From Catajapyx aquilonaris (lineage: Eukaryota): 57,968 nucleotides of DNA. Positions within the stretch are counted from its first letter, which is position 1. Each line of letters starts with the position of its first letter. Positions 8,306 to 57,512 of this stretch are shown here, piece by piece. The notes under the pieces were generated by a model. The model had not been told where the DNA came from. It did not search any database and was given only the letters and a program-made list of their open reading frames with translations. The position numbers and the translations under genes were made by a program. Location: the NCBI GenBank assembly GCA_000934665.2, contig JYFJ02002382.1:1-57968 (forward strand), given 5' to 3'.

Positions 8306-9917
8306 ATGGGGACGGAAATAACGGAATGGTATTGCAGTGAGAGTTTTCGCAATTTATCTTGGGATTATTCAACCTACATTCAAGGATACATCTCGATCGT
8401 TGTGTGTGTGTTTGGGTCCATCACAAGCCTGCTGAGCATCGTGGTTTTGCTCCAAAAGAATATGGTGTCGTCGACCAATGTCCTTCTGGCTGGCCTCGCA
8501 GTGGCTGACACGCTAATTATGATGGCTTACGTGCCGTACTCCATTATGTTCATATTAATGAGTTACGACGATCCTCCTAACTTCTTAGCAACATATCATC
8601 AATATTCATGGTCGATCTTCAAACTTTTTCACAGTCACTTTCACACGGTAAGCGACACTCTACCTCTGCTTGCAAGTGCTGATGGTTTTGTTGTTGTTTG
8701 TTTGTCGTCATAATTTGTTTGTTGTCATAATATTATGTCAGTTTCACATTCGGCTGAGGTGCAATAGGCCATATGTCTATAAATATATTTCTTCCCAGGT
8801 TTTCCACGGTATATCCGTTTGGATCACAGTGATCCTGGCAGTTTGGTGGTACGTGATGATCTGCTGGCCACTGAAGAGCAGGCAGTGGTGCGGGACCAGG
8901 AGGGCCTGGTGGGCACTCGTCGTCACCTACGCCTGCGTCCCCATCATCTGCATCCCGAGTTACATGATGTTCGAAGTCAATTCTGAGCCTATTGACATGT
9001 ACGACTACGAATATGAGCTGTCTACCACCATGCCACCAGCACCATCATCACTGGCGCCTCCTGCCCCCGGTCTGCCCTCGCCTGACACTGTCGGTCCAGA
9101 GGTTGTGCCCACTGTTGCCCTATCCCCTCCTTACACCATTGTGAATGCCACCCAGTCCTACGGGACTTATATCAACTCCTTAGGATATGACGCCGAGAAA
9201 GGTGAAAATACCTCGTTCTTCAAACTCAACCACTGGATGCTGGGTGTGCTGTTCAGGCTGCTGCCATGCGCTCTTTTAACTGTCATCAGTTTCAGAATGG
9301 CCTATGCTCTGATCGAGGCCAAGAAGAGAAGGAGGACCTTGGTGGCATCTGGGACTGCACCGTCCGATGCTGACAGGAAGATGCATCGGACCACGAGGAT
9401 GCTCCTGGTGGTCGTCTTCTTCTTTCTCGTCACCGAAATTCCTCAAGGAGTTGTGGCCATCCTTTCAGGGACACTGGAAACATTTTATTATGAGTGCACC
9501 CCATACTTGATAGAAGTCTTTGATCTTCTGGTTCTGATAAACTCTGCCATAAACTTTGTTTTGTATACGACCATGAGCCAGGAATTTAGGCAAACTTTCA
9601 AGAACCTCTTCGTGCCCAAAATCAGGATCCCCTGGCGTCTTTGTTACCGATGGTCACGAACAATTGACCGTAATAATGGGGCGCGACCTGTTAGCAACAG
9701 CACCGAATCCGGCGACACCACTACAGTCGACTTGAGAGTACTGAGGTCATTCGGAAGTCATGATAATCAACTTAACAGAGAAGACGTTAGGCAGATTATG
9801 GACACAGTTTTACTCTCTCACTTGGATACTTTAGAGAGAAAAATGCAATCTTCCATTGACTCCTTAAGTGCGGATGTGCGGGACTTGCGACACTTTATGG
9901 CACTCTACACGGGGTAG
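8306..9917 (+). CDS. Myosuppressin-receptor-like (DmsR/Srw-related) class A GPCR, array copy 1
   Basis: Exons 8306-8647 and 8799-9917 (phase 0 intron in TM3). Motifs QGYISIVVCVFG, MVSSTNVLLAGLAVAD, RTTRMLLVVVFFFLVTEIPQG and LINSAINFVLYTTMSQEFRQTF match the insect myosuppressin-receptor pattern as I recall it. Has WWY in place of WRY. Confidence 0.88.
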
Positions 9918-10354
9918 GTAACGAACAGGATCTGTATACGTATTAATTGAATTAATTACATTTGAAAATAATGGTATCATTATTTTAGAGGCATGCTCAA
10001 AAACTCGCTCAGAGTGAAGAATGGATCAGAAAGTAGCTTCGTGGATACGGAAGACATTGACAACGACACGACAGCATAACAAACACTGAGAAGGTGATGA
10101 GTGATGAAGCATAAGTGTTCATTATTATCAAGTTTTTTACAGTATAAATATGCAAATGTATTGTTGCCAATTCAGTCACCGTGTCAATTTGTATGCTGCC
10201 TCCTTTTTTGATGAAAGTTTATAATTTTATCCTAAAGCTCTTCCCCTAAAACCAGTACACACTTTAATGCAGTACCGTTCATTTTTTATCCATGCATGAG
10301 ACAGGGAATATAATTTCATTACATGTACGGTACTGTATACAACACATCCCTAAT

Positions 10355-11042
10355 TGACCACATCTGTGTGCATAAAAATATGTCCTTATCCACGTGTCCT
10401 TGACCCGGGACACCTCATGGTCAAGGATTGCAGCATGCTGTGCCTCAAAATCTTTAATTCGCGTCACATAATATTGCAACCAGAGTTATGCACAGTGTTA
10501 ATGGCGGTGAAATGAAGCCGCAAAAATATACTCGTTTAAAATTATAACTATTACCAAGACTATTACGATTAAAGTATTTGATGAAAGCACCCACAGTAAT
10601 TATTATTTCATTTCGGCTTGTCCTTCACTTACATTCAGGGAAGCTGCACCTCATGGGCCTGACATTAAGACATAATTATTCTGAAGTAAAGCGCAGCGAA
10701 TGTAGATTTTATTCCGCTGAATACATAGTATGTTATGTCTGTAGGTGATGGTATTACAGGTGTATACTAGTCAGGACTGGTTTGCCAAGTTTTTACGATC
10801 ATATTCTCCTTCCTCCCCATCGCACACGTTCGTTTTCAAGGTTATATAAGAGTTAAACCGTTCAACCCTCAGGTATATTATAACATATTCTGCAACGTCA
10901 CTCTGTGTGTTTTTATCTGAATTGAAACGTCAGTGATGAGAATCAGTAAGGAGAGAATGACTCCAGGATGCAATAACGTGTATTAGTTGTTGCGGTTACT
11001 ACCTGCCAGTGGGTGAATGATTAATTAATTAATTAATTAATT
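10355..11042 (+). repeat. Orphan duplicate of the GPCR upstream (promoter/5'UTR) block with no CDS attached
   Basis: Matches the blocks before copies 3 and 5 (tccttgacccggga(c/t)acctcatggtcaaggattgcagca...agtcaggactggtttg...tagttgttgcggtt). It stops just short of the ATG-equivalent position at a (TTAA)n run (11021-11042), after which the block restarts and leads to copy 2. Confidence 0.75.
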
Positions 11043-11615
11043 CGCGCCACATATAATTGCATCCAGGAATATGCAATAGGTGAAATGAATTCGCCAAAAA
11101 ATCATCAAATTAAGTAGATGATTGAAATATCTGAAATATGCACCCACAATTAATATTTTTGTGCCGCTTGCCCTTCACTTACGTTTCATTCAGGGAAGCT
11201 GTGGATAGTCTCTTTACCTCATGGGTCAGTGTCATTATGACATTAAGACAGATTCTGAAGTTTAAAAAATTGGTTCAGCTTAGGCAGTGTATGCAGATGT
11301 ATAATTATGCCGCTGAATCCATGGTACAAAAAAATGCGGTATTGCAGGTAAATAGTCAGCACTGGTTTGACGAGTATGTATGAATTTTCTTCCTCATCGT
11401 GTGTAAAAGCAAGGTTATAAGAGTATAGCCATTCAAACCTCAGATATTTAATATATTCTGCAACGCCACTGTAATGTGTTACCTGAATTGAAACATGAGG
11501 AGACTCAGCAAAGAGAAGAGCGACTCCAGGTTGCGATTGCGTGTATTAGTTGTTGCGGTTACTATACCAGACTGAGTGAGTGCATGACTTGAGTGGGTCG
11601 CTGCCAGTTGACAAA

Positions 11616-13254
11616 ATGGAGATGGAATGGTCTTATTGTAGTGAAAATTTTCGCGAATTGATGTCCGCTTATAGAAACGCCTTTCACGGATACATCTCTC
11701 TCGTTGTGTGTGTGTTTGGATCAATCACAAGCCTGATGAACATCGTGGTTTTGCGCCAAAAGAATATGGTGTCGTCGACCAACGTCATTCTGGTTGGACT
11801 CGCGGTGGCTGACGCATTAGTTATGCTGGCTTATGTGCCGAATTCCATTAGGTACATATTAATGAGTTACGACGATCCTCATCACTACTGGGGAACATAC
11901 ACTGAATATTCATGGAACATCTTCCAACTTTTTCATACTCACTTTCACAGGGTAAGTCGTACTCTCTGGTCTCTACCTCTACTTACAGCTGTCTGTTTGT
12001 GCCATTACATGCCCTTCTTATATTCTGACCAATATTCAACATAACCATCAGTGAATGACGAATATCTCAGTTTCACATTCGGCTGAAGTGCAATAGGACT
12101 TGTCTGAATAGTTTTCTTCCCAGGTTTGCCACGGCATTTCCGTTTGGACCACGGTGATCCTGGCAATTTGGCGATATGTGATGATCTGCTGGCCACTGAA
12201 GAGCAGGCTGTGGGGCGGGACCAGGAGGGCCTGGTGGGCCGTCGTCGCCACATACGTCTCCGTTCCCATCATCTTCATCCCGAGTTACATGATGTATGAA
12301 CTCGATTCCGAACCTGTTGACATGTACTACTACGAAGGTCAGCTCTCTGCCTCCATGCCATTACCAGCATCAACACTGCTGGCCCCTTCAGCCTCCGGTC
12401 TGTCCTATTCCTCACCTGACACTGTCGGTCCACATGTTGTGTCCACTGTTGCCCCATCCCCTCCATACACCATCGTCGAAGTCCCCCTGTACGCGATATA
12501 CACCAGCTCCTTAGCTTTTGACGAGGATAAAGAAGAAACCACGCTGTTTTTCAAACTCAACGAGTGGATGTTGGGTGTGCTGTTCAGGCTGCTGCCTTGT
12601 GCTGTTTTAACTGTTGCCAGCCTGAGAATGGCCCATGCTCTGGTAGAGGCCAGGAAGAGAAGGAGGACATTGGTGTCAGCTGGGACTGCACCGTCCGACA
12701 CAGATAGGAAGATGCATCGGACCACGGGGATGCTCCTGGTGGTCGTCTTCTTCTTCCTCGTCACCGAAATTCCTCAAGGAGTTGTGGCCATCCTCACAGG
12801 GACATTGTACGGATTTAACGATGAATGCTCCATACACTTGGAAGAAGTCATCGATATTCTGGTCCTGAGCAACTCTGCCATAAACGTCGTCTTGTATACG
12901 ACCATGAGCCAGGAATTTAGGCAAACTTTCAAGGACCTCTTTGTGCCCAAAATCAAGATCCCTTTGCCTCTTTGTTGCCAATGGTCCCAAACACTTGACC
13001 GCAATAATCAGGCGCAAGCTGGGAGCAACGGCACCTCATCCTGCGACACAACTACAGTCGATTTGAGAGTACTGAGTTCATTCGGAAGTCACGATAATGC
13101 TTTAGTTAGCGAAGACGTTAGGCAGGTTCTGGACAGAGTTTTACTAGTCGATCCTCTCGACGACAGGCCGAAAAAAATACAGTCATCGATTGACTCCTTA
13201 ACTACGGATGTGCAGGACTTGCGACAGTTTGTGGCACACACTCTACACGGGTAG
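11616..13254 (+). CDS. Myosuppressin-receptor-like GPCR, array copy 2
   Basis: Exons 11616-11951 and 12124-13254; same intron position; HGYISLVVCVFG, LAIWRY, TEIPQG, NSAINVVLY; intact ORF. Confidence 0.88.
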
Positions 13255-13786
13255 GTATAGTAACGAACAATATCTCATTTGAACTATATCATTTTAGGGA
13301 CGTGCTGCTCAGAGTGAAGAATGGATCAGAAAGTAGCTTCGTGACCGCCGAAGACAATGACTTTGATAACGACAGCATAACAAGTACTGACTTATTGCGA
13401 GAAGGTGATTTTAGTGATAAATAATAGGCCTACTGTAAGGGGGGTGTGACTTTGTGACAGTTTTTGAGGTTTTTTTTTGGTATCGGAGCAGAAACGGTAT
13501 AAAACTATAAATTTTGGCCGGTTCCACCATCTGCGCTCAGTGCTGAGTATAGAGATCATCTTCGGAGTCCGCCGCAGGACCGTAGGTTAGATAGCTCACA
13601 CAACCTTCTCGCTCGAGCACTGCCTGAGAAGTGCTTAACGTCTTATTAAAGCTGACACTGACAACTCATTTGGAACATGCTGCCTTTCTATAGCTATGCA
13701 GCATGATGCTCCATCTATACGTAGGTATGTGTTGCATAGATACATATTGCATACTATGCATAGTGATGAGTTGTAGACAATATGAA

Positions 13787-14144
13787 GTGCTCTTTTAACT
13801 GTCATCAGCTTGAGAATGGCCTATAATTATGCTCTGGTTGAGGCCAGGAAGAGAAGGAGGACATTGGTGTCAGCTGGGACTGCCCCGTCCGATGCTGCCA
13901 GGAAAATGCATCGGACCACGAGGATGCTCCTGGTGGTCTTCATCTTCTTCCTCATCCCCGAAATTCCTCCAGAAGTTGTGGCCATCCTCACAGGGACATT
14001 GCCTGGCAGATTTTTCGGTTAATGCTCCTTATGTGCTTACTTGACAGAAGTCTTTGATCTTCTAGTTCTGATCAACTCTGCCATAAGCTTCGTCTTGTTT
14101 ACGACCATGAGCCAGGAATTTAGGCAAACTTTCAAGGACCTCTT
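13787..14144 (+). pseudogene. GPCR paralogue fragment (TM5-TM7), disrupted
   Basis: Encodes LLTVISLRMAYNYALVEARKRRRTLVSAGTAPSDAARKMHRTTRML... with an in-frame TAA at 14020-14022 and indels. Homology ends at ttcaaggacctctt; no exon 1. Confidence 0.85.
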
Positions 14145-15696
14145 AAGTATCGTAATTTTGGTTGCCTAATATTCTGAATTCAAAAATTATAGGGTATACA
14201 CTGGAACACTAAACCAGTGAATGTGGCTGATTTTTTAAAACTCCTCCTTGTCACGAGAAAGGAGCACAGGAATATTTCGAGAATACAACAGGTGGTGGAT
14301 TCTATTCATGTAGAATATATTTCACACATGTGAAGTTTAATTACAGGGCAATTAGGATGAAAATAGGTATAGTCTATTCCCGGCCAAATGCGACACCTTC
14401 AACTGGTTGTGTTTTAATATCCTGCGAGTGACACTACCTGCTGCACATGCTCACGTTTCTGAGGTAGTGGCACTCGCAGGATAGACGAAAGAGTAGGCCG
14501 TAGCTACTTATATTTTTAGTCGTCTGTTTTTCCAACCTCCTACCATCAACTATAGCGTGACGTACTTTATGGACGACTCCTAAACCTAAAGTGAAAACAA
14601 GATGAAAAACTACATCCCATCTTTGATGCAACCCACTTCGGGCAAACCACCGCAATAACTGAGACATAAGAAGCTCCGAAAGTATGTCCCGGAAAAAATA
14701 ATGAATGAAGTCACCATGTCTATATCTGCCTTTGCTGCACCAGTTATAACTTAAGCAGTATTACATATAACTGTTGTTCGGATGCATTGCGTACTTATTT
14801 GTTTGGTTGCTTTTGCGCCATTTAAATCTAATGAACGTGTAACAACACCATTCCTTCATGTCCACCCTACGTATTATATTTAAATATGAGAATGATGGGA
14901 TATTGGCTGCGAGATTCAGACGAAGGTGGACCAGGACTGCCAGAAGAAGTTGGTTGAAGTAAGGTATACAAATTGCGAGATTCACTCATGTTGAAATACA
15001 GTGCGGGTTGAATGTTAGTAATCGAACAGGTCTGTTATGTAGCATAGGTAATGCACGTCTCTGTGCACAAATCATGTCCTTATCCTCATTTCCTTGACCA
15101 GGGACACCTCATGGTCAAGGATGCAGAACGTGCCTCAAAATCATTAATTCGCCGGCGCCACACAGTTGCAGCCATAAATATGCAACAGTATTAATGAAGT
15201 GAAATGAATTCTCAAAAAAATCATCAAAATAAGTAAATTAGAACTACTCTTATGATTAAAATATCCGAAATAGGTACCCATAATTAATATTATTTTCAGT
15301 GCGACTTGTCTCTCACTTAAACGTTTTATTCAGGGAAGCTACGTGTTCGTCTCTTTACCTCATGTATCAAGCCAGATTCGGAAGTTAAAAAAATAATTGT
15401 TCAGCTTAGGCAGTGTATGCAGATTGTATGCCGCTGAATCCATGGCACACAAAAAATGTGGTATTGCAGGTAAATAGTCAGGACTGGTTTGACGAGTTTG
15501 TATTAATTTTCTTCCGCATCGTGTGTAAAAGCAAGGTTATAAGCGTATAGCCATTCAAACCTCAGAACCTGAATTGAAACATGATGAGACTCAGCAAAGA
15601 GAAGAGTGACTCCAGTTTGCGATTGCGTGAATTAGTTGGGGCTATACTACCAGACAGTGAGTGCATGACTTGGTTGAGTCGCTGCCAGTTGACAAA

Positions 15697-17511
15697 ATGC
15701 ACACGGATTTCCATTGTAGCGATCGTTTTAGCTATTTGTTGTTCGATTATTCTACTAACATTCGCGGATATATCTCTGTCGTTTTGTGTGTGTTTGGGTC
15801 CACCACAAGCCTGCTGAGTATTGTGGTTTTGCGACAAAAGAATATGGTGTCGTCGACCAACGTCATTCTGGCTGGACTCGCCGTGGCTGACACATTAGTT
15901 ATGCTGGCTTACGTGCCGTACTCTTTTTTGTTCATATTAGCAGGCTACGACGATGATCCTAACTTCTCAGCAAAATATGTTCAATATCCATGGGCGATCT
16001 TCAAACTTTTTCACATTCACTTTCACACGGTAAGCTATAACCTCTGCACTTACACGCGGTCATTTCGTGCAATTCCGTGCCTTCTTATTGTCATCTGATT
16101 AATTAAACATAACCAGTGAATGACTCTAAACACATCTCCGAGTAGTGAAAAATATTGTTGATATTGTACAGTATTGACTGTCATTTTGCCCAATTTGATG
16201 CTAGTAGGCCTATTTTTACAAGCTGAACACATTACACAGTGCGGTAATCATATCGTTTCTCGACTCAACTGGTTCAGAAACAGATAAGCCTCGAGTGAAG
16301 TAAGTATAGGACATAATATTAGATCTAAATATTTTCCTCCCCACCAGGTTTGCCACGCCATATCCGTTTGGACCACGGTGATCCTGGCAGTTTGGCGATA
16401 TGTGATGATCTGCTGGCCACTGAAGAGCAAGCAGTGGGGCAGGACAAGGAGGGCCTGGTGGGCCCTCGTCGCCATATACGTCTGCGTCCCCATCATCTGC
16501 ATCCCGAGTTTCATGATGTACATGGTCCATACTGAATCGATTGAAACGTACGACTACGGAGATCACCCCGATTTAGACATCCCTGCTCCCATCCTACCAG
16601 CGCCACCACTGGCCTCTTCCCACCCCGGTATTTCGGACCCTCCCGACCCAGAGATATTCTGGTCTTCAGGTTACACCTCTCTCGGGAGTGGACCCGTCTC
16701 ACCGGACCGTCCCCACACCGTCGTCGATCGGTTCACCAGGTACAGAGTCTACACCAGCTCCTTAGCTCATGACGAGGATAAAGGTGACAACACGCTGTTC
16801 TTCAAACTCAACCAGTGGATGCTGGGTGTGCTGTTCAGGCTGCTGCCTTGCGCTCTTTTAACTGTGGTCAGCTTGAGAATGGCATATGCTCTGGTTGAGG
16901 CCAGGAAGAGAAGGAGGACATTGGTGTCAGCTGGGACTGCCCAGTCCGATGCTGACAGGAAGATGCATCGGACCACGAGGATGCTCCTGGTGGTGCTCTT
17001 CTTCTTCCTCGTCACCGAAATTCCTCAAGGAGTTGTGGCCATCCTCACAGGGACATTGGACAGATTTTACGATGAATGCGCCCTACCCTTGGAAGAAGTC
17101 ATTGATCTTCTAGTCCTGATCAACTCCGCCATAAACTTCATCTTGTACATGACCATGAGCCAGGAATTTAGGCAAACTTTCAAGGACCTCTTCGTGCCCA
17201 AAATCAGGATCCCTTGGCCTCTTTGTTGCCGATGGTCACGAACTATTGGCGGTAATGATCAGACGCAACCTGCTGGTAGCAACGGCACCGCATCCTGCGA
17301 CGCAACTACATCAGTCGACTTGAAAGTGCTGAGGTCATGCGAAAGTCATGATAATCAGCTTAACATCAGAGAAGACATTAGGCAGGTTCTGGACACAGTT
17401 TTACTCTCTCACTTGGATCCTTTAGAGAGAAAAATGCAATCTTCGATTGACTCCTTAAGTGCGGATGTGCAGGACTTGCGACACTCTATGGCAATCATGC
17501 TACTCGGGTAG
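15697..17511 (+). CDS. Myosuppressin-receptor-like GPCR, array copy 3
   Basis: Exons 15697-16029 and 16348-17511; LAVWRY, TEIPQG, LINSAINFILYMTMSQEFR; intact ORF. Confidence 0.88.
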
Positions 17512-18839
17512 GAAACGAACAATATCTGTACGCATTAATTGAATTAATTTCATTTGAAATAATTGTATTATTAGCCTATGTATATTACAGGGGCGTGCTG
17601 AAAGACCCTCTCAGAGGGGAGAATGGATCAGAAAGTAGCTTCGTGACCACGGAAGACATGGACAACGACAGCATAACAAGCACTGAGAGTCTGAGAAGGT
17701 TATGAGTGATGAAGCATAAGACAGTGTTCATTATTATCAAGTTAGTTACAGGATATGCAAATGCATTTTTACCAATTTAACATATTTATGTGAAGTCACC
17801 GTTTCAATTTGTATATTATGCTGCCGCCTTTTTGGATGAAAGTTTATTATTTTATAGTAAAGGTCTCTCTTCCAGTCTTCCCCCAAAACTATAGTGCACA
17901 CTTACAGTACCGTCCATGCATTAGACAGAATTTTATGAATTTATTCCCCCACAGTCACGAATAATGAAAGTAATGTGAATTGCTCATATTGTTAATTTCA
18001 CTGGAGAAAGAGGTGCAAAATCAACATTTCTCTTACAGATGCAGTAGCAGTAGTTTTAAGTGGGCTACAATTAATGAAAAAAGGTCTTCGTCATATTTGA
18101 ATGACCTATATTTGGATTAGTCTATACTTTCAATATATTCATTTTGTTAGATCATCAGTACATATTTAATAAACAAGAAATTATTGATTTTTATCTTTTT
18201 GCAATCTAATCCTGTCTCATATGTGCATTATGAAATGTGAAGTTTTTGCAAGTTTTGTTTTACCATTGTGAAAAATGGAACTAAATATATTGCATGATCC
18301 CTGTTATTTGTGCACTGGAGGAACGTAGGTCTAAAATTCAGAGTTGCTAGTTGGTTACTCACTGTCAGTATTTATCTTGCCCTATTGTATTTGGAAATTA
18401 GTAACAGACAGACCTACAATTTACTAATAAATGAGACATCAGGAATTTGTATGGGGTGTTTTAATTCCAGAAAATCAATTTCTTTTTAATATGTGGATGT
18501 TATTGAGAGCTATGGTATTACAGGAATAACAGTCAGGACTGGTTTGACGAGAATGTATGACTCTCCATCTTCCCTACAGCACTGATGTTCTTGTGTAATC
18601 GCAAGGTTATATGCTGTAAGGGTAACCTATCAAGCCTCAGTTATTTAATATATACCTATATTCTACACCGCCATTATATGTATACGCTTTACCTGACTTG
18701 AAGCATGATGAGACTCTGAAAAAATGTGACTCCAGGTTGCGATTACGTGCATTAGTTGTGGTTACTACCAGACAGTGAGTGCATAACACGAGTGAGTAGT
18801 CTCTGCTGCATGTGGCTGCTGTGGCTGGCTGTTGACAAA

Positions 18840-21316
18840 ATGGAGACGGAATGGTACTGTAGTGAAAATGTTCGCGATTTGTTGTTCGATTATTCTACGA
18901 ACATTCACGGATATATCTCTGTCGTTTTGTGTGTGTTTGGGTCCATCACAGGCCTGCTGAGTATTGTGGTTTTGCGACAAAAGAATATGGTGTCGTCGAC
19001 CAACATCATTCTGGCTGGACTCGCCGTGGCTGACATGTTAATTATGCTGGATTACTTGCCGTACTCTATTTTGTTCATATTAATGAGTTACGACGATCCT
19101 CCTCACTTCTTAGAAGCAATTCAATATCCATGGGCGATCTTCCAACTTTTCCACATTCACTTTCACACGGTAAGGTATATTTCCTACTTCTGTACTTCCA
19201 CGCGGTCATTTCGTGCAATTCCGTGCCTTCTTATTATCATCTGATTAATTAAACATAACCACAGTGAATGACTCTAAACACATCCCCAAGTGAAAAATAT
19301 TTATATGAATATAGGGAATAATATTGAGTGCACGAAATCTCTATGGAACCCACAATAATTATATGACATCTTCTGCTAGATCCATTGTCACCAAATGGCG
19401 AACTCTTGTGACAAATATTCTTGTCTCATGAGCTCCCCTGTTTTTGTCAGAATGCGACGCAACATTTGATGACAATGGCGCTGGCAGAAGATGCCATCCA
19501 GCCTATTGAGCGAAAATATCGAATTCGCCCCTATTGTCCAATTAGTTTATATGCATCTCATTTTTGAAACATCTGCAATTGGGCCTTCATGTTTTATATA
19601 AACGTGAGAGAGTGTTGTCATTATTAGAGGGCGGGACTGATTCATGAGTCACACTTTCATGACAGATATCTCATCAGTTTCACACTTCAAGATCACCTAT
19701 GTGCACCGTTGCTGAAATGCTCCAACATCTGTACTCACAGCATTTGTTTCATAAATTGCATAATTCATTCAACCTTAATCTACATCGTTGATGTACAGTA
19801 TTGACTGTCATTTTGCCAAATTTGATGCTATTAGTAGGTTTATTTTTACAAGCGGAACACATTACACAGTGAGGTAATATCATATCGCTTCTGGACTCAA
19901 CTGGTTCAGAAACAGAATTAGAGGCACAGCAGCTATAAAGCCTCGAGTGAAGTATAAGTATATGACATAATAATTATTAGGTCTAAATATTTTCCTCTCC
20001 ACCAGGTTTTCCACGCCATATCCGTTTGGACCACGGTGATCCTGGCAGTTTGGCGCTATGTGATGATCTGCTGGCCACTGAAGAGCAAGCAGTGGTGCGG
20101 GACAAGGAGGGCCTGGTGGGCCCTCGTCGCCACATACGTCTGCATCCCCATCATCTGCATCCCGAGTTACATGATGTACAAATTCCATGATTCTGAATCG
20201 ACTGAAACGTACGACTACGAAGATGAGCTCTCTGACTCCATGTATAATGAATCGACTGAAACGTACGACTACGAAGATCAGCTCTCTGACTCCATGTACG
20301 ATGAATCCACTGAAACGTACGAATACGAAGATGAGCTCTCTGACTCCATGTATAATAATGAATCGACTGAAACGTACGACTACGAAGATCACCCGGATTT
20401 AGACATCTCTGTCCCCATCCTACCAGCGCCACCACTGGCCTCTTCCGAGCCCGGCATTTCGGCCCCTTCAGACCAAGAGATATTCTCGTCTTCTTCTGAC
20501 ACTGTCCCCGATCCATGGGCCCCACTCCGTTTCAACCCCTTCTTCGAGGTCACCATGTACAGAGTCGGCCCCAGCTCCTTAGCTTATGACGAGGATAAAG
20601 ATGAAAACACGCAGCTTTTCAAACTCGACCAGTGGATGCTGGGTGTGCTGTTCAGGTTACTGCCTTGTGCTCTTTTAACTGTGGTCAGCTTGAGAATTGC
20701 ATATTCTCTGGTTGAGGCCAGGAAGAGAAGGAGGACATTAGCGTCAGCTGGGACTGCCCAGTCCGATGCTGACAGGAAGATGCATCGGAGGATGCTCCTG
20801 GTGGTCCTCTTCTTCTTCCTTGTCACCGAAATTCCTCAAGGAGTTGTGGCCATCCTCACAGGGACATTGGACAGATTTTATGATGAATGCACCCTACCCT
20901 TGGAAGAAGTCATTGATCTTCTGGTCCTGAGCAATTCTTCCATAAAGTTCATCTTGTACATGACCATGAGCCAGGAATTTAGGCAAACTTTCAAGGACCT
21001 CTTCGTGCCCAAAACCAAGATCCCTTGGCCTCTTTGTTGTCGATTGTCACTAACACTTGACCGTAATAATCGGGCGCAACCTGGTAGCACTGGAACCGCA
21101 TCCTGCGACACAACTACAGTCGACTTGACAGTGCTGAGGTCATTCGGAAGTCATGATAATCAGCTTAACATCAGAGAAGACATTAGGCAGGTTTTGGACA
21201 CAGTTTTACTCTCTCACTTGGATCCTTTCGAGAAAAAAATGCAATCTTCGATTGACTCCTTAAGTGCGGATGTGCAGGACTTGCGACACTTTATGGCACT
21301 CACGCTACACGGGTAG
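18840..21316 (+). CDS. Myosuppressin-receptor-like GPCR, array copy 4 (repeat-expanded ECL2)
   Basis: Exons 18840-19169 and 20006-21316; intact ORF with an 18-aa tandem repeat in ECL2, MHRRML (6-nt deletion) and NSSIKFILY. Confidence 0.86.
19365..19497. repeat. Short imperfect inverted repeat in the enlarged intron of GPCR copy 4
   Basis: tgacatcttctgctagatccattgtcaccaaatg ... catttgatgacaatggcgctggcagaagatgcca. It lies within ~500 nt that is absent from the otherwise similar intron of copy 3. Confidence 0.6.
20195..20390 (+). repeat. Coding minisatellite, 54-57 nt unit x ~3.5 (ESTETYDYEDELSDSMYN)
   Basis: gaatcgactgaaacgtacgactacgaagat(g/c)agctctctgactccatgta... repeated three times plus a partial fourth unit, frame-preserving. 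Confidence 0.93.
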
Positions 21317-22630
21317 GTAACGAACAATATCTGTACGCATTAATTGAATTAATTACATTTGAAATAATTGTATCATTATATTATAGGGACGTGCTGAAAG
21401 ACCCTCTCAGAGGGGAGAATGGATCAGAAAGTAGCTTCGTGACCACGGAAGACATGGACAACGACAGCATAACAACCACTGAGAAGGTGATAAGTGATGA
21501 AGCATAAGTGTTCATTATTATCAAGTTTGTTACAGTATATGCAAATGCATTGTTACCAATTTAATATATTTATGCGCAGTCACCGTTTCAATTTGTATGC
21601 TGCCTCCTTTTTGAATGAAAGTTTATTAGTATTGTGTACTTACTTGTTGCGGTTGCTTTTTTGCCAATTAACCCCACAATTCTTTCATAAACATCCTGCG
21701 TATCCTATTTTTAATTTGGGAATTATATATTGTCTGATGGGATTCAGACGAAATGTGGGCCATGACTGCCAGAAGAAGTACCAGTATACAAATTCCAAGA
21801 TTCACTCATGCGTCAGTGCGGGTCGAAAATGAATGATCGAGCAGGTCTGTTATGTAGATATGGTAGGTAATGCACATCTGCGTGCAGAAAAAATCATGTT
21901 GTTATCCGCATATCCTTGACCCGGGATACCTCATGGTCAAGGATTGCAGCACGTGCCTCAGAATCATTAATTCGAGCCACATAATTGCAACCAGGGTTAT
22001 GCACAGTGTTGTAATGGCGTCGAAATAAAGCCGCACAAAAATATCCTCGATTTAAGTAAATTATATTTACGATTAAAGTATATGATAAAAGCACCCACAG
22101 GTATTATTTTAGTTTGGCTTGTCTTTCGTTTGGCTTGTCAGTTGGCTTGGCTTACATTTCAGGGAAGCTGCATCTCTTCACCTCATGGATCAATGATTAC
22201 ATTAAGACATAAGTTATTCTGAAGTAAAGGCCAGCTTAGGCAGTATATAATTAATAATTATACAGATTTTATTCCGCTGAATCCATGGTATAGGTCTATA
22301 ATTATGTGGTATTACAGGTGTGCGCGCCGTATAGTCAGGACTGGTTTGACGATTTTTTAATACGATATTCTTCTTCCTCTCCCACTGACGTTCGTTTACA
22401 AGGTTATATCAGAGTTACATCGTTCAACCCTCAGGTATTTAACATGTTCTGCAACGCCACTCTGTGTGCTTTATCTGAATTGAAACATGATGAGACCCAG
22501 CAGAAAGAAGAGAGATTGGATGCGATAACGTGTATCAGTTGTTGCGGTTTAATACTACAAGACAGTGAGTGCATGACTTGAGTGAGTCGTGCAAGGAGTC
22601 GTGGCCGTGGTCGTGGCCAATATTGATAAA

Positions 22631-24310
22631 ATGGAGACGGAATGGTATTGCAGTGAAAATGTTCGCGATTTGTTGTACTTGTACGATTATACTAAGTACA
22701 TTCACGGATACATCTCTATCCTTTTGTGTGTGTTTGGGTCCATCACAAGCCTTCTGAGCGTTGTGGTTTTGTGCCAAAAGAATATGGTGTCGTCGACCAA
22801 CGTCATTCTGGCTGGACTCGCAGTGGCCGACATGTTCATTATGCTGGCTTACGTGCCGTACTCCATTATGTTCATATCAATTGGTTACGACGATCCTCCT
22901 CACTTCTTAGCAACATTATATCAGTATTCCTGGGCGATCTTCCGACTTATTCACAGTCACTTTCACAGGGTAAGCCATCGTAAGCCATGCTCTCTCTCTC
23001 ACTTTCTCTCTCTCTCTCTCTACTTATACAATACAGCTGCTATTTTGTGTCATTACATGTCTTTTCTTATCTCCTGAGCAATTCAACATAACCGCAGTGA
23101 ATGACGAATATCTCAGTTTAACTTTCGACTGAAGTGCACTAGGACTTATCTGAATAAACCTCCCCATCAGGTTTGCCACGCCATATCCGTTTGGATCACG
23201 GTGATCCTGGCAGTTTGGCGCTATGTGCTGATCTGCTGGCCACTGAAGAGCAGGCAGTGGTGCGGGACCAGGAGGGCCTGGTGGGCAGTCGTCGCCACCT
23301 ACGTCTGCGTCCCCATCATCTTCATCCCGAATTACATGATGTACGAATTCGGTTCCGAGCCTATTGAAAAGTACTACGACGAAGATGATCAGCTCTCTAT
23401 CTCCATCCCACCCTCACTGGCCCCTTCTGCCCCCGGCATGTCCTCGTCCTCCCCTGACACTGTCGTCGGTCCTCAGGTTGTGCCCACTGTTGCCCCACCC
23501 CCTCCATACACCATCGTCGAAGCCACCAAGTACTCGTACTACACCAGTTCCTTAGCTTTTGACGAGGATAAAGATGACAACACGCTGTTTTTCAAACTCA
23601 ACCAGTGGATGATGGGTGTGCTGTTCAGGTTGCTGCCTTGTGCGCTTTTAACTGTGGTCAGCTTGAGAATGGCATATGCTCTGGTTGAGGCCAGGAAGAG
23701 AAGGAGGACATTGGTGTCAGCTGGAACTGCCCTGTCCGATGCTGACAGGAAGATGCATCGGACCACGAGGATGCTCCTGGTGGTCCTCTTCTTCTTCCTC
23801 GTCACCGAAATTCCTCAAGGAGTTGTGGCCATCCTCACAGGGACATTGCACGGATTTAACGATGAATGCTCCATACACCTGCAAGACGTCATTGACATTC
23901 TGGTCCTCATGAACTCTGCCATAAACTTCGTCTTGTATACGACCATGAGCCAGGAATTTAGGCAAACTTTCAAGGACCTCTTTGTGCCAAAAATCAAAAT
24001 CACTTGGCCTCTTTGTTGCCGATGGTCACGAACTACCGTCAGTAGTCATCGGGCGCAACCTGGTAGCAACAGCACCGCATCCTGCGACACAAGTACCGTC
24101 GACTTGAGAGTACTGAAGTCATGTGTAAGTCATGATAATGCCCTGGTCATCAGAGAAGACGTTAGGCAGGTTCTGGACACAGTTTTACTCTCTCACTTGG
24201 ATCCTCTCGGCGACAGGCTGATTCAAATGCAGTCATCAATTGACTCCTTAAGCACGGATGTGCAGGACTTGCGACAGTTTGTGCGTGGCCCTCAAGCTAT
24301 ACACGGGTAG
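22631..24310 (+). CDS. Myosuppressin-receptor-like GPCR, array copy 5
   Basis: Exons 22631-22969 and 23171-24310; LAVWRY, TEIPQG, MNSAINFVLY; intact ORF. Confidence 0.88.
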
Positions 24311-24748
24311 GAAACGAACAACATCTGCACGTGTGACTTAATTTGAGTGAAAAATTTATATCATTTTAGGGGAGTGCTGAGAGACCAGCTCGGAATGAAC
24401 AATGGATCAGAAAGTAGCTTCGCGACCGCCGAAGACAATGACATTGATGGCTACAGCATAACAAGCACTGAGGTTTTTAGTGAGGAATAAATTATTTTTT
24501 GCATGGTGGTCAAGGGAAAGAATTTGGCCACTTTTGGCTTGATCGCTGATTCCTATACATGCTGGAGCTCATCAAGTACTTCAACAACAAATTTGGTGAG
24601 GGCGATTTAATAAAACGGATCTGAAGGTGATTTTCGTGTCGATTTTATTGATTGACTGACTGGAGGTGTATCTTGCTGAGTGCTGGTTAGGCGATGTTTC
24701 TAAATCCGACGCCCGACGTCGTACCGGAGACATGCTGGGCATGCATCA
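24311..24748. repeat. Duplicate of ~27310-27750, including the 3' end (last codons and 3'UTR) of the neighbouring minus-strand CBM14 gene
   Basis: Colinear match, e.g. ggtggtcaagggaaagaatttggccacttttggcttgatcgctgatt...atccgacgcccgacgtcgtaccgg...ggcatgcatc at both sites. Confidence 0.9.
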
Positions 24749-25049
24749 TTATTTTAGAAAGTAGGTACAGTAGTAACACTCAGATTAGCAAAATAAGTTT
24801 TCGGACGTCAAAAAATGGATTGAGGAATACACGAAATCTCTAAGAATAATTTCACTGTGCAATTTATATAAATAAACGACGCCAAAACTAGCCGGGCCTC
24901 CCGTCTAGCTAGTAGTGGCAAATTGTGGCGAACCATTGAGTTATTTTATTATCAGAGAGCTGCAGTTAACTAGACCTTACTCGCATGTTTGATTATATGT
25001 AGTGTGTAGATAATTACGTATTGCACAGTGTAGTAAAAAATAATTCATA

Positions 25050-25186
25050 TTAAGTGATTCCGAAGGTTATTCCCTGATTCATGATGTAGGCTATAGTGAT
25101 TCAGTGATTCAAGAGCTGATTCAGAAGGCGATTCACTGATTCATCAGTGTAGTGATTCAGCGATTCAGACGTTGATTCAGTGATTA
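25050..25186. repeat. Degenerate (GTGATTCA)-like short tandem repeat
   Basis: Repeated tgattca/gtgattca units immediately upstream of the 25.2-25.5 kb palindrome. Confidence 0.6.
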
Positions 25187-25207
25187 ATTTTGGCTGCGTA
25201 CGAGATT

Positions 25208-25508
25208 TAGAGGCCGTAAAGGTCGTCCAGCTTTGATGAAATTGGCGGCCATGACACTTCACGGCAAGAACATACTTTGGAATTGTCGTATTTCTAACCC
25301 TGTTCTCCTCTGTGTACACTCCTGCCTCCTGGCGGGGCTGGGAATAAAAGGCAGTCTGGTGAAAGTCACCATTTATTCCCAGCCCCGCCAGGAGGCAGGA
25401 GTGTACACAGAGGAGAACAGGGTTAGAAATACAACAAATTCAAATTCGCGCGTGTTCTTGCCGTGAAGTGGCATGGCCGCCAAAGATGGCCGACCTTTAC
25501 GGCCTCTA
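25208..25508. mobile_element. Palindromic fold-back element upstream of GPCR copy 6, related to the IR-intron element
   Basis: Outer tagaggccgtaaaggtcg / cgacctttacggcctcta; perfect ~61-bp stem 25288-25348 / 25372-25432. Shares ggcggccatg.ca.ct.cacggcaagaaca and cctatttata.ctcgttg with 4929-5237. Confidence 0.82.
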
Positions 25509-25767
25509 TCCTATTTATATCTCGTTGATTCAGACCCATTGGCGGACCCCTCGCGTTTTTGTGTTAATCTCAAGATTATAAGAGTAGTAACATTCAAACC
25601 TCGCTATTTAATGTATTCTGCAACAGGCCACTTTCTGTGTTTGACCTGAATGGAAACGTGATGACACTCAGTAAAGAGTCACTTTCGGATGTGATTGCGT
25701 GCATTTTGCCATTTAGCAGTGGTGACTATCAGTGCATAACTTGAGTGAGTCGCTGCCAGTTGACAAT

Positions 25768-27274
25768 ATGGAGACGGAATGGTATTGTAGCGATAATTTT
25801 GGCAATTTGATGTGGGATTATACCAGGTACATTCACGGATACATCTCTCTCGTTGTGTGTGTGTTTGGATCCATCACAAGCCCGATGGGCATTGTGGTTT
25901 TGCTCCAAAAGAAGATGGTGTCGTCGACCAACGTCATTCTGGTTGGACTCGCGGTGGCTGACACGTTAGTTATGCTGGCTTACGTGCCGAACTCTATTTT
26001 GTTCATATTAATGAGTTACGACGATCCTCACTACTTGGAAACATATTATCAATATTCATGGAACATCTTCCAACTTTTTCACACTCACTTTCACAAGGTA
26101 AGCCATACTCTACTCTATACCTCTACCTGCAGTTCAATTTAACGAGTGAATGACGAATATCTCCGTTTCACATTCAGCTGAAGTGCAATAGGACTTGTCT
26201 GAATATATTTCTTCCCAGGTTTGCCACGCCATATCCGTTTGGACCACGGTGATCCTGGCAATTTGGCGATATGTGATGATCTGCTGGCCACTGAAGAGCA
26301 GGCTGTGGGGCGGGACCAGGAGGGCCTGGTGGGCCGTCGTCGCCACATACGTCTCCGTTCCCATCATCTTCATCCCGAGTTACATGATGTACGAATTCGA
26401 TTCCGAGCCTGTTGACATGTACTACTACGAAGGTCAGCTCTCTGCCTCCATGCCACCAGTACCATCACTGGCGCCTTCTGCCCTCGGTCTGCCCCCGCCT
26501 GACACTGTCGGTCCACATGTTGTGCCCAGTGTTACCCCATCCCCTCCCTATACCATCGTCGAAGCCACCAAGTACTTGTACTACACCAGCTCCTTAGCTT
26601 TTGACGAGAATAAAGGTGAGAACACGCTGCTTTTCAAACTCAACCAGTGGATGATGGGTGTGCTGTTCAGGTTGCTGCCTTGCGCTCTTTTAACTGTGGT
26701 CAGCTTGAGAATGGCATATGCTCTGGTCGAGGCCAGGAAGAGAAGGAGGACATTGGTGTCAGCTGGGACTGCCCTGTCCGATACAGACAGGAAGATGCAT
26801 CGGACCACGATGATGATCCTGCTGGTCCTGTTCTTCTTCCTCATCACCGAAATTCCTCCAGGCGTTGTGCTCATCCTCACAGGGACATTGCACACATTTC
26901 TCGATGAATGCACCCTACCCTTGGAAAAAGTCATCGATCTTCTGGTCCTGAGCAACTCTGCCATAAACGTCGTCTTGTATACGGCCATGAGCCAGGAATT
27001 TAGGCAAATTTTCAAGGCCCTCTTCGTGCCCAAAATCAAGATCCCTTGGCCTCTTTGTTGCCGATGGTCACGAACTTTCGTCCATCGGGCGCAACCTGGT
27101 AGCAACGGCACCGCATCCTGCGACACAAGTACAGTCGACTTGAGAGTACTGAAGTCATGCGGAAGTCATGATAATGCTCTGGTAGAAGAAATTAGTCAGG
27201 TTCTGGACAAGGTTTTGCCCTCTCACTCGGATCCTTTCGAGAGAGAAATACCATCTTCGATGTGCAGGAATTGA
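25768..27274 (+). CDS. Myosuppressin-receptor-like GPCR, array copy 6 (C-terminal frameshift)
   Basis: Exons 25768-26097 and 26219-27274; all 7 TMs present; a 19-nt deletion near 27250 gives an early stop (SSMCRN*). Confidence 0.83.
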
Positions 27275-27690
27275 GACAGTTTGTGGCCCTCGAGCTGCAC
27301 CGTGGGTAGGAAGCGAACAATATCTGCACGTGTGACTTAATTTCAGTGAAAAATTTATATCATTTTAGGGGAGTGCTGAAAGACCAGCTCGGAATGAAGA
27401 ATGGATCAGAAAGTAGCTTCGTGACCGCCGAAGACAATGACATTGATGGCTACAGCATAACAAGCACTGAGGTTTTTAGTGAGGAATAAATTATTTTTTG
27501 CATGGTGGTCAAGGGAAAGAATTTGGCCACTTTTGGCTTGATCGCTGATTTCTACATGCTGGAGCTCATCAGGTACTTCAACAACAGCTTTGGTGAGGGC
27601 GATTTAATAAAACGAATCTGAAGTTGATTTTCGTGTCGATTTTATTGATTGACTGACTGGAGGTATCTTGCTGAGTGGTTAGGCAATGTT

Positions 27691-30600
27691 TCAGGAGCAG
27701 ACTGCTAGATCCGACGCCCGACGTCGTACCGGGGGCATGGGCATGCATCGTTGTGCCAGGTCGCTGAACCGGTGTCCCAGTGCGCACAGGAAGCGGAAGT
27801 CCAGCAGCTGCCTGGGCTCGAACCCTGGAGAGCAGAAGTGGAACAGTCGGCAGCCCAGGGATGTGTCGGCGTAGAACCGGAACATGTGTCGCCCCCTGCA
27901 GGTGAACCGCCTCTTCTTGGGCACCGGAGAGGTCGACGGGGTCATCGGGGTCGACGGAGGCAGGCGGGTTATCAGGAAGCCTCCGATGGGAGACTGGGCG
28001 ATGCTGCTGGCGGTGGTGGTCGAAATCTCGGGGGTTGTCGACTCGTACGGTTCAGTGGTTGTCGCACTGGTCGTGGTTGTGGTCGCAACTGTTGTGGTCG
28101 CTTCCTTTTCAGTGGTCACATCGGTGGTAATCACATTCGTGGTCCAAGCAGGCTCCCAAGCATTGTTGACGATGGTGGTCGCCTCCTCCAGTTCTTCTTG
28201 GTAAGTGGTGGCCTCCACTGTGCTGCTCGAAACCGGCTCGTCATACCGTTCTTCGGAGGTACCAAGGGCTTTAGACTTACGCCGAGACACACCGAATGGG
28301 TCAGAGTAGTCATCATCGTCGTACTCGTACGAATCATAGTACTCGGAAGAGTCTGAGTAGACGCTGCTGCTTCCGGAGCGGTCGTCTGCACTGTTGCTGT
28401 TGATGGACTCTTCGGCACCAACCTCGCCTGGAAATGTTTTACGTCAACAAAATGTACGTGAGAAATCGTGTTATCCGATACCTTCGTAAGAGGAGGAGTC
28501 CTCCTGGCTGTTAGATTCCAGATTCTGTTGCAAGTCGTCATGAGAGGAGGCTTGGATGGCCTTGTCCACTCTATTGCTGTTGTCACCTTTGCCCTGCTGC
28601 TTGTTGTTGTCCTGGGCCCTTCCTGTGGCAGCGGCCAACAATATCTGCTGCTGGGGGGTCAGACCCTGCGGTTGTGACCTCAATGTTCGCTCCAGGTTGC
28701 CTGCCAGGGTTTGAGCGTGGGACAACCGGCTCAGGACCGCGCTGACGAATGCGGGGTCAAGGCTGGCCAGGTCAAAGTGCAATGCGGCGAGGTCCTCCTG
28801 TCTGAGGCCGAAGAATCGGAGCAGCGCGGCAGTGGCCTCACCGCCTCTGTTGCCGGTCAACGCCGACGGGGAGGTCACCTGTCGTCTGTACCTGCGACCA
28901 GTGACCACATCGTCTTCCTGAACGACGTCGGTCAGCCACGCCGTACCTCGACGCCGACGCCACCATCTAGACAGCTTGTTCAGTCCCTCCACAGCTCGTC
29001 GTCGCCTTCCAAACCGTCTGTTTAACCTCAGTGGCTCGAATCCTCCTGGAAATTCGCCGCCTGGAAGAACAACAGAGTTAGCAACTAATGACTTGTTGAC
29101 CTATATGTCACGACTGACCCGCAGCGATGACGTCTGGGTCAGCTCTTTCGTTGAGATGGTAGAGACTAGGCGCATCTTGGCATCGGACAGCGGTCTGCTC
29201 TCGACAGGTCCTGCTGCGTTGGTCCAGCAGTGTTCCTACACCGCACCAGAAGCTCTGTTTCCTCAACCTGTTATGTGACACCACAATGAAACACATGGTT
29301 TGAGTTTGCAATTTGTTGGACAGACCTGCCCTTCTTCCCTTGGGCGCAGATGTGGAAGGCCCTGCAACCCAGCTCGACATCTGCGTAGAGACCTCCGCTG
29401 ACCCTACCAGCGCAGGTGAAGGTGGTTGCTGGAGGAGACCCGGAGTTGGACACGGTCGCCCTGGGCGTCGTCGGGACTGAAGACGTCGTTCTTCTTCTGC
29501 TGACTCCGGGTGTCCTCGTCCTCACTAACCTGGGTGCTGCTGTGCTCGTGGAGGTGCTGGTAGTGGTAGTGCTGCTGGCTCTGACTCCTTTTCGTACAAA
29601 CACCACCCTTTGACCCGGTGATACGTACCTACAATTAGTAGATATGAAGGTGAACCGAAGTTGTTTCCAACACTACTCTTGATGGGGTAACAATATGGCC
29701 GACTTTTGGACATTGCCAACGAGAGAGGCAACGTTGTTGTCGGAACAACAGCCTTGCGCGAGTGTGGGTGCGCACTCTGTTGCGCTCGTAAAAAAAATTC
29801 AGCTATAATTACTTGAACATTGGCACCTTGCTGGGCAAGTGAGATAAAAATCAGCCAATAGAAACTAGCATGATTGCGACCTCGAAACTCTGAAGGATGT
29901 AAAAGTGAAACTCTCGAATCTCTCTCGGAATACCGATAGTTGCAAAAATCCGGATCAAATTGCAGTCATTTTGCAATTTTTATACAGGAATTTGACATGG
30001 CAAGTGCAAATCATGCGATTTTTTTTAAACAATATATTGCAGTCTGCATTACATGATCATGAACTTTCTATCCTTGGATCCGGTGGAAGGAAAGTTTTTC
30101 GATCGGTACCGACTGCGTGGCATCGTGGCCTAAGTTGCCTTGGCTTTACCAGATTATTATATACAGGTCTGGAAACTCCCCATCTTATATCGCGTGGTTT
30201 TATCATCTTTAGGGAAGGGAGTTGCCGCTTCGGCGCTGGTGTAGTACTCAAGTGTGCTGTAGGCAGCGCCGAAGCGGCAATCCCCAGGAAGTATGCTCAC
30301 AGGGGTCTCCATATGGCTGGGGTAGGAGTGTCAGATCCATTAGTATATACCTAGTGGTTTGTTGGTCATCGGCCTGCCGCCTGACCCTGGGGAGGTAAGG
30401 TCCTTTGGTGAGGATCCGAGGTACGTCGCTGTGCTGGAAGTGGGCCTGGTGCTCTGCCTTTGCGTCGGCGTCGGCTGCTTCCCCTTGGTACTCATACTCG
30501 TAGTCGTAGTAATCGTAGTTGTACTGCGCAGGAGTCGTCGTAGAAACGTTTTCGACCTTGGGAGGAGGCAGCTGAGTGGTGCTGCTGCCCGCACCGCCAC

Positions 30601-56618: not shown

Positions 56619-57512
56619 CGTGTCCTCCTCACTCGGCCTCTCCCTCCCAACAACAATGGTATCACACCATTTGGTCACCGGACAACACACACAACACACG
56701 TCCGCACGTACACACCACCAGTCACCGTTAGTTACCCCAAGATGGCTGCCAGGGGAACTAATAAACACCACACAACAGCAAGGCTCTCTCGAGAGGAGGG
56801 GGTGGCTCCCCCGACTGTGGGTGCAGGAGGGTCCAGGCGCCGCGGTTGAAGGGGCGAGGCAGGGCCGCCCCTAGGCCTAACTTGGCCCTCCGCTTCCTAC
56901 ACGCAAACTCCCAACTGCTGCACGCTCTGGCAACACCGCCTCCCCTCCCTCCCTGCACACCCCACCCCTTCTTGTTTATAGCACAGCGTTGCCACATCCA
57001 CCACGCGTCGACGGGCACCGCGCACTAGTTTCAATCCGGCAACACCGGTAGATGCGGACGTGATTGGCCGGTTGAAGCATAGCCGCTGGTGGGGAACGCG
57101 CTTATCAGCTATCCCTCGCTGCTTATTCCGAGAACCGGCTTTATATTGGGCTGGCCACACGGGGGCCGCCCCTGGTGTCTATCTACCAGAGGCCCACCCC
57201 TTCAGACACCCCACCCCCACTCGACGTTGCCTTATACTTTGGAGGCACCCCGCCCAAACGGCATCCTTTCTTCCTTTTTTTTTTGAGGGGGGAGTTGGCC
57301 CACCCCCCTCCCCCCCTCTCTTGGTCCTTTTAAATCCGGCCTTCACTTTTAGGGGGGGTGGCCTCCTCCCACCCAGACGCTTCCCACCCACAAAACCGGT
57401 TCCAGAGCATCATACACACGTGCATTGAATCGAAAGGAGGGGGGATGCGACCTGATTAATTTTTCCTTACTAATCATTTCCTGGACGAGACCCATCTCCA
57501 CCTGTACCGTAC

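Follow-up and report, generated by a model that had tools for sequence, protein, structure and literature searches.

Rapid evolution is a trait of the nematode Srw chemoreceptors, and arthropods are considered to rely on ionotropic receptor families for chemoreception. Insects have few Srw-like genes, with 16 genes in seven species according to the count given in PMC3963977. Drosophila has two myosuppressin receptors (MsRs) (PMC3510462), and C. elegans has 16 DMSR receptors, some of which are described as promiscuous for RFamide peptides (PMC7615250). The part of PMC4926255 that deals with these receptors groups CNMamide, FMRFamide, myosuppressin and AstB receptors with orphans in one clade. 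MSR and A13 cluster with the Drosophila MsRs, while A3, A8, and A20 are orphans in the same large clade (PMC4926255). Here we describe six intact class-A G-protein-coupled receptor (GPCR) paralogues on the forward strand of Catajapyx aquilonaris contig JYFJ02002382.1 (positions 8306-27274), together with one dead relic that spans transmembrane helix (TM) 5 to helix 8. The whole stretch of 57,968 bases is referred to as the window, and the six genes are numbered G1 to G6 in their order along it (Table 1). Judging from sequence, this array is probably a lineage-specific, fast-evolving tandem cluster of orphan receptors that belongs to the Srw/DMSR/FMRFamide-receptor-like peptide receptors of protostomes.

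From 8.2 to 27.3 kb, the stop-to-stop frames of the + strand form a pattern of one short frame followed by one long frame, which is repeated six times. Each short frame ends with a conserved run of codons for H-x-H-F-H-x followed by GTAAG, and each long frame is entered downstream of a pyrimidine-rich tract with CAG. The intron in between (GT..AG, phase 0) lies inside TM3 in all six copies and measures 151, 172, 318, 836, 201, and 121 nt in G1 to G6, respectively. Joining both frames in phase 0 yields proteins of 461-546 residues without internal stops, not counting the third exon described below. When the gene models were compared with the whole window (tblastn), matches were found within 8321-27262 only, including the relic at 13789-14142. 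The array is therefore complete within the window, with six genes and one fragment. The relic comprises 356 nt with 83-87% identity to all six genes (blastn) and has an internal stop; its flanks carry stops as well, and no other exon parts were found near it.

The preliminary description of this locus had listed six same-strand paralogues and a fragment, which the open frames, the shared TM3 intron and the tblastn match to the relic bear out. It had also taken the genes as consisting of two exons, and this has to be revised to three coding exons in G1 to G5. The revision rests on contigs of the single public run that covers the region (X1; 0.24 of sampled words, library type and tissue unrecorded), which are spliced across a second intron. 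Of 25 X1 contigs, 24 match at 99% or more. Two contigs skip 9913-9987 in G1 and 21312-21385 in G4, both with GT..AG ends, corresponding to introns of 74-75 nt (joints 9912/3 to 9988/9 in G1 and 21311/2 to 21386/7 in G4, the latter with a depth of 13.1). The TAG that ends the long frame sits in the donor site of this second intron and is removed by splicing, after which the protein continues for another 29-41 residues encoded by exon 3, with many Ser, Thr, Asp, and Glu among them. Both splice sites and the sequence of exon 3 are conserved throughout G1 to G5.

Several X1 contigs start at predicted acceptors, either of exon 2 (8798 and 16347) or of exon 3 (9988 and 24369). G1 is covered at 8798-9194, 9573-9913, and 9988-10589 with no other letters, G3 at 16347-16607 and 17706-18412 (the latter likely 3' untranslated region, UTR), and G5 at 24369-24618, from its predicted exon-3 acceptor onward. 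Contigs are absent on G2, on G6 and on every exon 1, and the run is uninformative about the expression of these two genes. The simplest reading of the spliced contigs is that G1, G3, G4, and G5 are transcribed.

G6 differs from the other copies at its 3' end. A nucleotide alignment with G5 and G2 revealed a deletion of 19 nt close to the end of exon 2, which causes a frameshift and a TGA at 27272-27274. The downstream homologue of exon 3 is out of frame. Position 27274, at which the preliminary description ends the array, is the premature stop of G6.

The Pfam family 7TM_GPCR_Srw (PF10324) is the top family for all seven pieces scanned, with 7tm_1 as second. The six exon-2 products score 65.4-82.8 bits with PF10324 and exon 1 of G1 scores 33.7 bits, with the cut-off at 22.2. 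The Srw-type assignment made previously was thus right at the Pfam level. A search of the PDB with an exon-2 profile retrieved generic peptide receptors only (E between about 1e-7 and 1e-5), including opioid, motilin, neurotensin, somatostatin, and ghrelin receptors. This agrees with PMC3963977, where the peptide and SOG subfamilies are presented as the nearest to Srw. Searching 1.84 billion representative proteins with the six-copy exon-2 profile gave 3582 matches at E<=1e-3, the best of them with 188 bits. Among the matches listed, none extends beyond position 324 of the 373 profile positions, which leaves the last part of the C-terminal tail without a match, and no protein exceeds 37% identity in full-length BLASTP alignments. 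A protein atlas returned generic seven-transmembrane (7TM) clusters only (best feature score 0.85). The named relatives include ‘dmsr-1-like’, ‘FMRFamide receptor’, ‘sex peptide receptor-like’, and ‘Neuropeptide receptor A20’ of Chilo; the first three names are presumably automatic transfers from the best curated match. None of the 50 labelled named proteins among the 120 matches listed is called ‘myosuppressin receptor’.

A phylogenetic tree was built with FastTree (LG+gamma, 354 trimmed columns) from 225 sequences, being the six copies and 219 relatives of 320-650 residues; the other 57 of 276 fetched proteins were dropped for their length. The six copies form one long-branched clade with a support of 1.0. 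Its sister group consists of five unnamed proteins (support 0.91), which are 24-34% identical to G5. Both join 39 further proteins at a support of 0.97, among them one louse protein, two ant proteins and lepidopteran ‘dmsr-1’/A20 sequences. Together with the grouping in PMC4926255, this tree places the array closest to orphan members of the group of FMRFamide, myosuppressin, sex peptide, and CNMamide receptors (FMRFaR/MsR/SPR/CNMaR). On these grounds, orthology with MsR appears unlikely.

The copies share 69-80% amino-acid identity, and at the nucleotide level they differ by 12-36%, depending on the segment (ECL2, the second extracellular loop, and exon 1). They also differ by indels in ECL2, by intron lengths and by a copy-specific repeat. 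The similarity is not confined to the exons but takes in the introns, the 3' UTR and some 0.3-0.6 kb of 5' flank (77% identity between 11036-13390 and 21966-24471; 86% between 23078-24750 and 26129-27752), from which it follows that whole units of 3.2-3.9 kb were duplicated head to tail. Pairwise synonymous divergence (dS) is 0.12-0.30, and the pairwise ratio of nonsynonymous to synonymous divergence (dN/dS, omega) is 0.51-0.96. Our analysis thereby sustains the earlier proposal of a lineage-specific tandem expansion with birth-and-death traits, given the clade support of 1.0, this range of dS, the relic and the tail-truncated copy. The pairwise homoplasy index (PHI) is 0.333 compared to 0.384+-0.008 after permutation, with none of 1000 permutations reaching the observed value. 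G2 and G6 have an identical tract of 158 nt in TM3b-TM4, although the divergence between them is 12-13% in exon 1 and in ECL2. Likewise, the copies closest to G5 are G3 and G4 over TM5-TM6, but G6 and G2 over ECL2, and both nearest neighbors and segment trees shift along the gene. The copies exchange sequence by gene conversion.

All six copies possess D2.50, P5.50, P6.50, and Y7.53, and the full set including R3.50 and N7.49 is kept in G2, G3, G5, and G6. The span from P4.60 to P5.50 measures 100-166 residues, compared to a median of 54 (interquartile range 49-61.5) in the 219 relatives, only 10 of which reach 100 residues or more. The additional ECL2 material is Pro/Ser-rich, with an acidic, Tyr-rich motif at its start. 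In G4, the ECL2 coding region contains a tandem repeat with a unit of 18 residues that is again acidic and Tyr-rich. The relatives have a shorter ECL2 with N-x-T sites instead. One N-terminal Cys and one Cys in ECL3 are invariant in all six copies, and an ECL2 Cys is absent in G1, G3, and G5. A disulfide between the N-terminus and ECL3 and sulfation of ECL2 tyrosines are possible. The tail after helix 8 is long too (82-108 residues without exon 3, compared to a median of 35 in the 219 relatives). It ends in a Ser/Thr/acid cluster, as would be expected for control by kinases and arrestins.

The mean pairwise amino-acid identity is 87.6% in TM5, 89.0% in the third intracellular loop (ICL3), and 87.8% in TM6, while it is 55.7% in the N-terminus, 62.4% in ECL1, 57.2% in ECL2, and 62.0% in ECL3. 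Identity amounts to 86-92% in ICL2, ICL3, and helix 8. Conservation is highest on the intracellular face and in TM5-TM6, and the N-terminus and extracellular loops evolve near neutrality. Omega is 0.81 for the extracellular class (95% interval 0.59-1.11, from 2000 column bootstraps, as for all classes), 0.42 for TM (0.30-0.60), 0.41 for the intracellular loops plus helix 8 (0.15-1.13), and 0.68 for the tail (0.47-0.99). The extracellular value is compatible with 1, and it is equal to or lower than the TM value in 0.55% of bootstrap pairs. The dN of the outer TM halves (0.089) equals that of the inner halves (0.090), which indicates that a binding pocket within the bundle has not changed preferentially.

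We applied one-ratio and site-class codon models in an implementation of our own (GY-type, F3x4), which is approximate and fixes branch lengths in proportion. Under the one-ratio model (M0), omega is 0.69-0.71 across the array. A site model on a single tree (likelihood-ratio test statistic, LRT, 18.6) was discarded, because two of its five top sites are post-frameshift residues of G6 and because it ignores recombination. In the revised test, the post-frameshift columns of G6 were masked and each of six segments was given a separate tree. M2a was then compared with M1a (LRT 7.24, P=0.027); the classes fitted under M2a have omega values of 0.18 (39% of sites), 1 (55%), and 3.1 (5%). All three sites with a posterior of at least 0.79 are located in ECL1 and ECL2. 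This is weak evidence for positive selection on the array.

The contrast between a conserved TM5-ICL3-TM6 core and a divergent outside had been pointed out in the preliminary description and is clear from the identities above. Its further suggestion that the ligand-facing surface has diversified is weakly indicated. The extracellular segments do exceed the TM segments in omega, but loop omega does not rise above 1, the outer TM halves have no excess, and the site test is marginal.

Neutral drift was simulated over half of each gene's smallest dS with 1500 replicates per gene. Three to six stops per gene are expected under this regime, and each frame would remain open with a probability of 0.003-0.047. 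The joint probability of six open frames is about 4e-12 if the genes are independent. The coding alignment has 31 distinct gap intervals, and only one of them, which stems from the 19-nt deletion of G6, disrupts the frame. Selection has kept all six frames open.

We propose that the copies act as G-protein-coupled receptors that would have a common intracellular output and bind different ligands on their outer side. The shared output would be provided by ICL2, ICL3, helix 8, and the Ser/Thr/acid-rich tail, which is of the type used by kinases and arrestins. The ligands are most likely peptides, which could be bound jointly by the N-terminus, ECL3, and the unusually long ECL2, a loop that is acidic and rich in Tyr and Pro. 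To our knowledge, every deorphanized member of the FMRFaR/MsR/SPR/CNMaR-type group has peptide ligands. Signaling may be altered or lost in G1 (no R3.50), G4 (no N7.49), and G6 (short tail).

Several points weigh against this reading. R3.50 is replaced by W in G1, while among the 219 relatives 209 have R, one has Q and nine have gaps at this position. N7.49 is replaced by K in G4 (N in 209 of the 219 relatives), and part of the tail is lost in G6. An omega of about 0.7 with approximately 55-59% of sites in the neutral class could represent relaxed constraint instead of functional diversification. The TM boundaries were set by eye from motifs. Moreover, dS is low in the intracellular segments (0.11, compared to 0.33 outside), so part of the similarity of the core reflects homogenization rather than selection at the protein level. 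Finally, X1 is not recorded as RNA, so that expression rests on the spliced form of the contigs, and the run may share its sample with the assembly.

Among other explanations, co-option as chemoreceptors would imply expression in sensory appendages and detection of external or exchanged peptides, in parallel to nematode Srw and to Aplysia. It would fit a tandem array with birth-and-death traits, the greater divergence outside the membrane, and the approximately 5% of sites with omega near 3, the top three of which lie in ECL1 and ECL2. The omega of about 0.7 is also high relative to conserved neuropeptide receptors, for which omega is generally far below this value. The gene directly upstream has a weak, sub-threshold match to a ligand-gated channel (E=0.0034), and Srw is the best Pfam domain in 29 of 90 chemosensory-like genes of Aplysia, according to the passage of PMC3963977 that lists them. 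On the other hand, the interval of loop omega (0.59-1.11) does not lie above 1, the outer TM halves match the inner ones in dN, the site test gives a marginal P of 0.027, and six genes are a small repertoire for a chemoreceptor family. In addition, the relevant part of a lobster survey states that chemosensory GPCRs were not found (PMC6150509). We consider a chemoreceptor role improbable, though worth keeping in mind. Its more specific form, in which these would be metabotropic chemoreceptors of a pancrustacean whose enlarged acidic, Tyr-rich ECL2 captures external or conspecific peptide cues, is slightly less probable still.

The copies might instead be redundant and drifting to loss, with relaxed constraint after duplication and no diversification of ligand specificity. 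The neutral class does comprise the majority of sites at an overall omega of about 0.7, the extracellular interval of omega includes 1, and R3.50W in G1, N7.49K in G4, the frameshift of G6 and the relic point the same way. This explanation has to account, however, for six 7TM frames that stayed open despite the expected 3-6 stops per gene (joint probability of about 4e-12 under independence), for 30 of 31 gap intervals that preserve the frame, for approximately 39-41% of sites under strong constraint (omega 0.06-0.18), and for spliced contigs from several copies. We therefore regard it as unlikely, marginally more so than the chemoreceptor readings.

That these are canonical myosuppressin receptors, merely duplicated, all binding myosuppressin and acting in the central nervous system and visceral muscle, is very doubtful. 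Relatives are auto-named ‘dmsr-1-like’ and the broader family includes MsR (PMC4926255), but identity is 37% or less to any protein, the name is missing among the 50 labelled proteins of the 120 matches listed, and the nearest named arthropod group contains the orphan A20, which is set apart from MSR/A13 in PMC4926255. ECL2 is about twice the family median, and six fast-evolving copies are to be compared with the two MsRs reported for Drosophila (PMC3510462). A canonical arthropod MsR is expected to have a low copy number and strong conservation, whereas we found six copies plus a relic with omega of about 0.7. An assembly artefact of collapsed or expanded haplotypes, a possibility raised in advance and for which we found no supporting point, is next to impossible given 12-36% nucleotide divergence in ECL2 and exon 1, an intron 1 of 121 to 836 nt, copy-specific ECL2 indels and a copy-specific repeat, and contigs that fit individual copies with no other letters.

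Table 1. Positions of the receptor genes, the relic and other features in the window.
Feature	Position	Strand	Description
G1	exons 8306-8647, 8799-9913, 9989-10079	+	515 aa; WWY instead of WRY (W at R3.50)
G2	exons 11616-11951, 12124-13250, 13298-13424	+	529 aa; exon 3 by homology with G1 and G4, no contig joint
Relic (seventh copy, TM5 to helix 8)	13787-14144	+	pseudogene (tblastn, blastn)
G3	exons 15697-16029, 16348-17507, 17591-17705	+	535 aa
G4	exons 18840-19169, 20006-21312, 21387-21507	+	585 aa; K at N7.49; 836-nt intron 1
G5	exons 22631-22969, 23171-24306, 24370-24490	+	531 aa
G6	exons 25768-26097, 26219-27274	+	461 aa; tail end lost
Intron 1 of G4	19170-20005		836 nt, compared to 121-318 nt in the other five copies
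Tandem repeat in G4 ECL2 coding region	20194-20389	+	54 nt x 3.6, 90% matches, score 330 (Tandem Repeats Finder)
(CT)16 microsatellite	22990-23021		in the first intron of G5; passed over as a repeat in the placement of the X1 contigs
Palindromic stretch of about 300 nt	25208-25508		between G5 and G6; matches itself in inverted orientation at 80% identity; both strands have open frames
Thr/Pro-rich mucin-like frame	1699-2829	+	
Single N base	4032		
Three consecutive open frames	4266-6877	+	directly upstream of the array
Middle frame of these three	5276-6184	+	Lig_chan, E=0.0034, 17.6 bits, cut-off 30.8 (sub-threshold)
Thr/Pro-rich mucin-like frames	27691-28443, 29271-29672, 30248-31185	-	
Glycine dehydrogenase (glycine cleavage P protein)	39510-44531	-	multi-exon; exon product 65-74% identical to pancrustacean proteins
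Gln/Pro/Val-rich and Lys/Arg/Asp-rich frames	47270-49060 and 49287-50378	-	long; no Pfam match
JmjC and JmjN domain exons	51476-52048 and 56373-56870	-	E of about 5e-13 each
Single N base	54398		

Other features of the window are included in Table 1. The three frames directly upstream of the array may belong to a divergent ionotropic-receptor-like gene. We set aside their annotation as an ionotropic receptor, since the Lig_chan match of the middle frame is below the threshold. Mucin-like frames flank the array on both sides and match the chitin-binding domain Peritrophin-A (CBM_14) weakly, below the threshold (E between 0.0016 and 0.013). The exon product of the glycine dehydrogenase gene is closer to no other proteins than to those of pancrustaceans, and a tree of this single gene tentatively sets the window beside hexapods and apart from barnacles and malacostracans. 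Further downstream, the JmjC and JmjN exons look like parts of one gene for a KDM4-type histone demethylase with a long intron.

The array resembles Drosophila DmsR-1/DmsR-2 and the C. elegans DMSR receptors in being of the class-A peptide-receptor type, with Srw as its top Pfam family. It differs from both by an identity of 37% or less to any database protein, an ECL2 about twice as long, a tail of approximately 140 residues that is unmatched among the matches listed, and six tandem copies with omega of about 0.7. The lepidopteran A20 receptors (Chilo suppressalis; Bombyx BNGR-A20) are similar in that they are orphans, with A20 inside the 39-protein group that the array joins at 0.97. However, the P4.60-P5.50 span of A20 is 51 residues compared to 100-166 in the array, and A20 and G5 are only about 30% identical. 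The literature consulted describes no array of A20 genes. Expression of Chilo A20 is reported as highest in the fat body (PMC4926255).

With the nematode Srw chemoreceptors, the array shares the top Pfam profile and the tandem expansion. The candidate chemosensory rhodopsin-like GPCRs of Aplysia (29 of 90 genes Srw-like by Pfam, PMC3963977) can be likened to it by their published description. They are proposed chemoreceptors outside nematodes, but they come from a mollusc, unlike this arthropod array. A limited literature search yielded no report that Srw/DMSR/FMRFamide-receptor-like genes have expanded in tandem in an arthropod.

A fast-evolving arthropod cluster of the Srw/DMSR type is a concrete candidate for a chemosensory role of GPCRs. 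If the chemoreceptor reading were true, a GPCR chemosensory family would exist in a group whose chemoreception is ascribed to ionotropic receptors, in parallel to nematodes and molluscs. If the copies bind endogenous peptides, they would represent a recent and datable expansion of a peptide-receptor network, in which duplication, gene conversion, and loss are still visibly under way, to be compared with the larger case described for C. elegans (PMC7615250). The natural variants at R3.50 and N7.49 next to intact paralogues offer material for comparison as well. Set beside these known systems, the cluster is a well-defined lineage-specific GPCR expansion and a new, divergent instance of a known receptor system.

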